Shown in pieces: positions 38,137-38,986 of a stretch of DNA of 64,000 nucleotides. The DNA is from Eledone cirrhosa. Lineage: Eukaryota. Below the pieces are notes generated by a model. The model was given only the letters and a program-made list of their open reading frames with translations. It ran no database searches and was not told the origin of the DNA. The stretch's first letter is position 1. Every line of letters begins with the position of its first letter. The stretch is taken from contig OZ024750.1 in NCBI GenBank assembly GCA_964016885.1, positions 50,406,001 to 50,470,000 on the forward strand. The letters are read 5' to 3'. The translations under genes and the position numbers were made by a program.

Positions 38137-38986
38137 AAGTTGTAATAAAATGAAAACGAAATTTCATTTCTCACTCTTAGTACGGCACTTACTTAAATGT
38201 ATGTATACTTACATACATATATGTATACAGACGTACAGTAGCATGCATATATATATACATACAGGTACACATACATATATGTACGTATCAGTTTAGCGGA
38301 CGCTTATTATAACGCCCGCTTTGTTCGTTTGTAAACAAACTGAACAGCCTGAATTTTATGCCGTACGGTGTTAAGGCAACCACGTCACCTTTTTGTTCAA
38401 CACTGACACAGGAACGATGTACTAGTTTCAAGCTTGTTAGCTATCATCAGCACCGTATACCCTTCTGCCAGATGGTTGAACGTTCGAAAGTATATACTTT
38501 CCTTATGAAAATTAACGGCTGAGCAGCCTAATTTGAATATCTAGTGAGTTAAGTCGGCCAGGCGTACCGAAAACGACAAGTTGTAATAAAATGAAAACGA
38601 AATTTCATTTAGCACTCTTAGTACGGCACTTACTTAAATGTAAGTATGTATGTATACGTACATACATATATGTATACAGACGTACAGTAGCATGCATATA
38701 TATATATATATATATATATATATATATATATATATACATATATATATATATATATATATATATATATATATATATATATATATATATATATACATACAGG
38801 TACACATACATATATGTACGTATCAGTTTAGCGGACGCTTATTATAACGCCCGCTTTGTTCGTTTGTAAACAAACTGAACAGCCTGAATTTATGCAGTAC
38901 GATGTTAAGGCAACCACGTCACCTTTTTGTTCAACACTGACACAGGAACGATGTACTAGTTTCAAGCTTGTTAGCTATCATCAGCA
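38137..38986 (-). mobile_element. Retrozyme-like tandem dimer (441-bp unit) with two HHRs, 38415-38455 and 38949-38987
   Basis: cggtg CTGATGA t agct aaca agct t GAAA ctag TA catcg; unit starts 38137 and 38578; flanked by (TA)n on both sides. Confidence 0.9.

Follow-up and report, generated by a model that had tools for sequence, protein, structure and literature searches.

A 5'-shortened hammerhead repeat in Eledone cirrhosa, likely a member of a non-LTR retrozyme family with Penelope-like insertion footprints

We interpret the insertion at positions 38137–38986 (minus strand) of the 64,000-nucleotide stretch of Eledone cirrhosa DNA analysed here (‘the window’) as a 5'-shortened copy of a hammerhead repeat family, likely a non-LTR retrozyme propagated from circular RNA by means of Penelope-like enzymes—a reading to which we assign a probability of about 0.8. 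The family is young, non-coding and very abundant; the locus itself is a slightly aged and unremarkable member, one damaged copy among thousands, and probably a passenger.

Architecture of the locus

Working along the minus strand, we see an A-B-A' layout: a truncated A, a 125-nt B, then a second A that runs up to ...ACAACTT, with (TA)n to either side. The individual features are as follows.

38137–38986, minus strand: whole insertion, a 5'-truncated, 1.7-unit copy of the family (L001; unit alignment and locus parse)
38578–38986, minus strand: upstream unit, broken off 2 nt short of the hammerhead core (unit alignment and locus parse)
38948–38987, minus strand: upstream hammerhead, the 5' strand of stem I being just 3 nt; predicted cut after 38954
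38883–38911, minus strand: 29-nt stretch with private substitutions at 38902 and 38896, unique in the genome and a marker for RNA of the locus
38696–38796, no strand assigned: expanded internal (TA)n tract, in the middle of a long predicted hairpin
38578–38634, minus strand: ‘tail’ of the upstream unit, the ~60 nt between the family's two fixed 3' ends
38453–38577, minus strand: segment B (unit positions 1–125), single copy here, with private variants at 38542 and 38536
38403–38471, minus strand: downstream hammerhead, with a full 6-bp stem I and distal stem I extension; predicted cut after 38420
38137–38452, minus strand: downstream unit, running from its hammerhead through the tail as far as the fixed 3' end (...ACAACTT)
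38420–38953, minus strand: predicted cut-to-cut monomer, 534 nt, 32% GC (folding prediction)
38088–38136, no strand assigned: (TA)n target, 3' flank
38987–39011, no strand assigned: (TA)n target, 5' flank

The two hammerhead cores are identical (CTGATGA-TAGCT-AACA-AGCTT-GAA-ACTAGT-A/CATCG, the stroke marking the predicted cut) and occupy 38984–38950 and 38450–38416 of the minus strand, such that the last base before each predicted cut falls at 38954 and 38420, 534 nt apart; this is as the original prediction had it, and all of its coordinates hold. The 441-bp offset that it described recurs between the 3' parts of both units (repeat family D7), and a unit-versus-unit alignment accounts for the 93 nt beyond 441, which it had put down essentially to TA expansion, as an 86-nt TA tract plus an 8-nt indel, less 1 nt. 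The description ‘tandem dimer’ is accurate in so far as two units lie head to tail, but the insertion amounts to a 1.7-mer, one truncated unit followed by a full one, rather than a full dimer. Internal (TA)n tracts differ in length among the units of the family, for which 441 nt is an unusually short unit.

A duplication introduced during assembly can be rejected, because the two units differ from each other at several sites; against the majority of its subfamily, the locus carries about nine differences. Since both flanks consist of (TA)n, neither a 4-bp target-site duplication nor a longer one, of the sort that non-LTR retrozymes may have, can be made out. A 110-codon, TA-derived frame is the only coding frame to overlap the locus, and its sense strand holds no perfect polymerase III A or B box.

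Several other repeats share the window. An older copy of the same family (20007–20634, minus strand; ~81% identity) has one CUGACGA motif, in which stem I includes an A-U pair and the stem III palindrome is disrupted; a different hammerhead family is found head to head at 22657–22691 (minus strand) and 23045–23078 (plus strand), flanked by TA and with a similar GGGTATACG lead-in. Adjoining our locus, at 37729–38097, is an inverted-repeat insertion with 132-nt arms. It belongs to a separate family with 2,737 candidates, whose members often stand head to head between TA flanks, and it resembles another Penelope-type 3' end. Located 2.9 kb upstream of the retrozyme, and on the same strand, is a 21-bp minisatellite (41839–43498, minus strand) of some 75 copies; it can be read as a 501-codon Thr/Pro/Ser frame, either a mucin-like exon or a plain repeat.

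The repeat family and its hammerhead motif

The exact 35-nt hammerhead occurs 10,471 times in the 3.0-Gb genome and its reversed control not once, which rules out a chance motif; a relaxed pattern returns 26,537 matches genome-wide. With a 341-nt query, the best 40 of 2,353 candidates are 96–100% identical. We parsed 29 distinct best-match loci, together with 52 encountered successively over the first 70 Mb of a single contig (C1), and see a unit whose order is circularly continuous, leading from the tail through B, hammerhead, hairpins and TA tract back to the tail. Its typical length is about 450–570 nt, and the hammerhead-to-hammerhead spacing is 432–573 nt (n = 49 spacings in the family sample). 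The longest same-strand run across the 52 loci comprises one motif in 31, two in 12, three in seven, four in one and six in one (2–6 motifs on one strand in 21/52), and 95 of 101 sampled motifs retain the stem I strand.

Short, tandem, non-coding units that each carry a type I hammerhead, a high copy number (thousands), GC below 50% (32%), the lack of a coding frame, and a monomer predicted to be highly self-paired when circular are all features of the metazoan non-LTR retrozymes, as described by Cervera and de la Pena 2020 (PMC7229834). Units in that group measure 220–240 nt in coral, 350–390 nt in mussel and 330/350 nt in axolotl; in contrast, those of our family are longer (about 450–570 nt) and contain an unstable internal (TA)n tract, whilst its arrays are short (1–6 units) and dispersed. 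On every sequence-level feature tested, the family nonetheless appears to belong with the metazoan non-LTR retrozymes, and the term ‘retrozyme-like’, as originally applied to the locus, is backed by copy number, covariation and family architecture. We found no paper on the family in the literature searched, that on cephalopods included; it may already have an entry in repeat libraries.

The motif has stems I–III in type I order around the core CUGANGA / GAAA / UH, departing from the canonical form at position 10.1-11.1, where a U.U mismatch is found at the base of helix II. The same mismatch is described for axolotl HHR_Amex2, and a stem III of one base pair plus a palindromic tetraloop for HHR_Amex1, with both reported to cleave best as dimers (PMC7229834). 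In minimal pLTR motifs, by comparison, helix II is given as 7–8 bp with a bulged base (PMC4209133, Cervera and de la Pena 2014), as opposed to the 4 bp plus U.U seen here. An Rfam scan of the window at the gathering threshold gave no hammerhead match; its single match was tRNA-like (29766–29836, minus strand; 37 bits, with several mispairs), possibly the head of a SINE.

To examine covariation we used nine aligned motifs—a small, related set, hand-picked from subfamilies and three sister families—in which both sides change in 13 of the 24 pairs, and in five of the six pairs of proximal stem I. No shuffle control reaches the observed covariation (0/500), and pairing drops from 85% to 33–49% in slid controls. 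The core is invariant among these motifs except at position 7. At the third pair of stem I the young subfamily has G.U and older ones have U.G or A-U, and the stem III palindrome, ACUAGU here, is ACGCGU in a 310-nt sister family. Compensatory changes of this kind in stems I, II and III, across subfamilies and sister families, imply selection on the fold.

The 310-nt family just mentioned (L134:4925-5600, L140 and L213) is itself tandem and retrozyme-like; its helix II has either a U.U or an A-U at the base. A diverged sister family (L005:1010-1084) shares the order tail, B, hammerhead; with its perfect 7-bp stem I and a canonical G-C at 10.1-11.1, its motif would be the better candidate for an active ribozyme.

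In a monomer, stem III is left with one pair and a tetraloop. Its palindromic character means that the hammerhead likely works as a dimer; in double hammerheads, the core of one unit is reported to cut the other (PMC4209133). Given the U.U at 10.1-11.1 and the 1-bp stem III of the monomer, we would predict a slow ribozyme.

Insertion ends, array uniformity and a candidate helper

The hallmarks of Penelope-like elements set out by Craig et al. 2021 (PMC8557442) are 5' truncation, partial tandems, an inverted copy, a tail at one end and a bias towards (TA)n. In our family 5' truncation, partial tandems and an adjacent inverted copy are all present, and the likeness to Hydra and Neptune Penelope-like elements (PMC8557442, PMC4209133) extends to the one-end tail, the (TA)n targets and the palindromic helix III; unlike Penelope-like elements as described in PMC8557442, however, the family has no RT/GIY-YIG frame, and its tail is about 60 nt rather than 30–40.

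The family has two fixed 3' ends, ~60 nt apart and both remote from the cut site. Of 94 arms examined (52 loci), 42 stop at the tail end followed by TA and 33 at the no-tail end followed by TA, with nine stopping in the inner TA tract, ten elsewhere and none at the motif; 75/94 arms stopping at a fixed end and then TA amounts to a (TA)n bias, to be read against a high genomic background of TA. Head-to-head pairs number 33 in the same 52 loci: in 20 the tail is present on one arm, in none on both, and no pair has two no-tail ends, the tail state being unresolved in the other 13.

Because the pattern used for sampling spanned the cut site, ends were also tested genome-wide. Motifs without the C after GTA number 46, and 11 of the 12 inspected are point mutants that continue; downstream halves without the G of GTA number 123, and two of the 12 inspected are true 5' ends. 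Ends of tail plus TA come to 1,698 for three tail variants. Copies neither begin nor end at the cut, from which it follows that the template ran unbroken through this site, as would a circle closed by ligation or a transcript that had not been cut. The 5' ends are scattered, with 1/89 lying within 5 nt of the cut and 2/89 at unit positions 1–5; ten of the 89 gather at unit positions 418–434, a small hairpin in the tail, reflecting either a stall of the polymerase or an effect of a T-run on alignment.

Units within an array are nearly identical: the median number of differences per 163 nt is 1 within arrays and 11 between loci (109 units, compared as 64 pairs on the same strand, 39 inverted pairs and 5,783 pairs from different loci). 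Variants private to a locus are common to all of its units in L134 (7/7), L024 (3/3) and L105 (3/3), and to both inverted arms in L046 and L114. This uniformity fits the repeated copying of one monomer; it could also arise from uncut multimeric RNA or from later local duplication. In L028, and to some extent in L134 too, a variant recurs in every other unit, which suggests two-unit (dimer) templates, or two-unit duplications, in some cases.

As to the source of the enzymes, protein searches of this genome recover two young autonomous families of Hydra type, whose frames have 745 and 784 codons and some of whose copies are tandem at 3.5 kb, along with one older family. The 745-codon frame carries RWR, DKT, CxCX5C, CxxC and CxH. 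PMC8557442 reports these motifs for the Hydra clade, which targets (TA)n, and our assignment of the frames to that clade rests on them; searches of Pfam and PDB gave no match for the autonomous frames. The Hydra clade of Penelope-like elements is, in other words, both present and young in this genome, and on the sequence evidence a helper of Hydra type seems likely. A Neptune-like fragment was also recovered from flanking sequence. The terminal repeats of the autonomous families bear other hammerhead-like cores and, in the four families examined out of a much larger number, share nothing with our unit beyond TA-rich stretches; the link to Penelope machinery rests on integration footprints, no terminal-repeat homology having been found to these four.

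Pieces of such elements also lie within the window. The 3' part of a young Hydra-type Penelope-like element is found at 27520–28080 (minus strand) and downstream, its core having a long helix II (the best 150 of 63,856 candidates are 96–100% identical), and that of the older Hydra-type family at 21050–21502 (plus strand), the downstream repeat of which has no canonical hammerhead core at the loci examined. Positions 1–807 (plus strand) hold a Neptune-like GIY-YIG fragment, then a hammerhead core at 769. Elsewhere in the genome, a very young 784-codon element forms 3.5-kb tandem arrays (L211-L213) with, by eye, a hammerhead-like core of U3-A8 type.

A comparable proposal has been made by Li, Clavereau and Pollet (bioRxiv 10.64898/2026.07.22.740005), who regard non-LTR retrozymes as non-autonomous Penelope derivatives; for Xenopus the link rests on co-occurrence and terminal-repeat homology, in 24/57 families. 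Here too autonomous Penelope-like elements co-occur, and monomers, dimers and short multimers are found; our own link consists of a one-sided tail, inversions and TA targets. Our locus comes close to what the preprint counts as ‘active’, namely two consecutive motifs.

We propose that intact tandem copies would be transcribed, and that two motifs would pair through the ACUAGU palindrome to form a double hammerhead, able to excise a 450–570-nt monomer that a host ligase could close into a circle. The GIY-YIG/RT protein of a (TA)n-targeting Penelope-like element would nick TA repeats; reverse transcription would begin at a fixed point on the circle and run for one to six rounds, and the present locus would be one such copy, its synthesis having ended 2 nt beyond the second hammerhead. 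Repeated rounds on one monomer would account for private variants that recur throughout an array and across the two arms of an inversion. In its most specific form, the proposal is that the family records Penelope-like copying of an RNA circle, with a fixed start 220–280 nt past the cut, repeated rounds of one ligated monomer and a 60-nt tail on one arm; this we hold tentatively, at slightly worse than even odds.

The same footprints might be left by a non-autonomous Penelope derivative whose templates are linear (multimeric) transcripts that have not been cut, with a slow or silent hammerhead and only a small role for circles; the tandem units would then reflect transcription through homogeneous arrays, jumps between templates or duplication at a later stage. 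We consider this unlikely, though deserving of serious weight. A weak motif (U.U, 1-bp stem III) is what it would lead one to expect, and low in vitro activity is reported for Penelope-type motifs (PMC4209133), as is cleavage in only one of nine Xenopus retrozyme dimers, the other eight being inactive (bioRxiv 10.64898/2026.07.22.740005). Naiad elements, described as hammerhead-free, form the same tandem, inverted and tail structures (PMC8557442), and both the alternating variants of L028 and L134 and the 10/89 5' ends at unit positions 418–434 sit comfortably with linear templates. Against it stand the compensatory changes that preserve all three stems and imply selection on the fold; we see no pile-up of 5' ends at the unit boundary (2/89), and private variants run through all the units of an array.

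Release of a circle by the locus, and wider comparisons

In its strong form, the original prediction has the locus itself transcribed and releasing the 534-nt monomer or circle. We regard this as improbable, and think it no likelier that the locus yields its own 534-nt circle in vivo; release of the monomer here is possible but weak. Two intact cores do lie in cis, with cuts 534 nt apart, and as a circle the predicted monomer is 72% paired by folding (z = -11.5 as is, and -6.3 with the TA tracts shortened; 60 shuffles each).

Much turns on stem I of the upstream hammerhead, which has three pairs, two of them native (TG) and one supplied by the flanking TA, as had been predicted. To speak of a ‘3-bp stem I’ at the upstream site is appropriate for the monomer fold, but in the dimer fold it is the downstream cut that is affected. 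Here we infer the assignment of strands in the double hammerhead: with each core cutting the other unit, the downstream cut (38420) would draw on the shortened 5' strand of the upstream unit. Truncation would weaken this cut, which relies on a strand worth +0.9 kcal/mol as a free duplex (3 pairs; computed) as against -7.4 for the native arm, and which would be without the distal stem, whereas the upstream cut at 38954 would keep its full 6-bp stem I. Also telling against release are the loss of segment B upstream of the first motif, the nine or so differences from the subfamily majority and the lack of a perfect polymerase III box on the sense strand.

In the computed ensemble the active dimer has a probability of about 0, lying 10 kcal/mol above the minimum-energy fold. 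Saying this, a nested double hammerhead is possible at the locus for 10.0 kcal/mol, and costs 7.2, 10.8 and 11.7 kcal/mol in three intact dimers; the similarity of these values means that the energy model, which ignores Mg2+ and tertiary contacts, does not single out the locus. Such an ordinary dimer cost, taken with the 2-bp helix I that is reported to occur in Drosophila virilis Penelope motifs (PMC4209133), counts against reading the locus as weak. On balance of the modelling it would still be a poor candidate for a circle, one of its ribozymes having lost most of stem I, and the thousands of intact copies appear to be better sources of monomer.

Around the cut the two units share 84 nt without a difference, 33 nt on its 5' side and 51 nt on its 3' side, and the junction k-mers already exist in the linear DNA of the window (30/30 of the 31-mers, 59/59 of the 60-mers and 84/99 of the 100-mers); on account of the 84-nt identity, short reads across the GUA/CAUCG junction are not diagnostic of a circle. 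Divergent RT-PCR would likewise amplify from any tandem copy. As a pair, the variants at 38902 and 38896 are unique in the genome, and a product carrying 38542/38536 followed by 38902/38896 over 181 nt, in the reverse of their order in the DNA, would come only from a circle or ligated product of this locus.

We think it very improbable that the locus represents two broken pLTR fragments of an autonomous Penelope-like element, head to tail and with no retrozyme family behind them. Its end architecture is the same as that of autonomous elements; between its repeats, however, there is no RT plus GIY-YIG frame, simply the 125-nt non-coding segment B. Across 81 distinct family loci, what comes after the tail is either TA or segment B and then another motif; an array may hold as many as six units, no unit was seen entering a coding frame, and there is no homology to the four autonomous families examined. 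The A-B-A look of the locus, and the circle model, are shared with the plant LTR retrozymes (PMC4918200), but a retrozyme of that kind is rejected: the motif is type I rather than type III, the family forms tandem arrays, and A-B-A here is a truncated tandem without true LTRs.

Returning to the reading we prefer, that of a non-LTR retrozyme copied from circular RNA by Penelope-like enzymes, the helper of animal retrozymes has so far been inferred, and the footprints described here tie the family to Penelope machinery beyond co-occurrence. The origin of tandem and inverted Penelope-like insertions, and the role of the hammerhead in them, are called open by Craig et al. 2021 (PMC8557442). If our reading is true, more than 10,000 near-identical copies, alongside intact helpers of the Hydra clade, would make this genome a direct test system for rolling-circle models of both retrozymes and Penelope transposition, and the circle-template model would become testable by RNA sequencing and array statistics.
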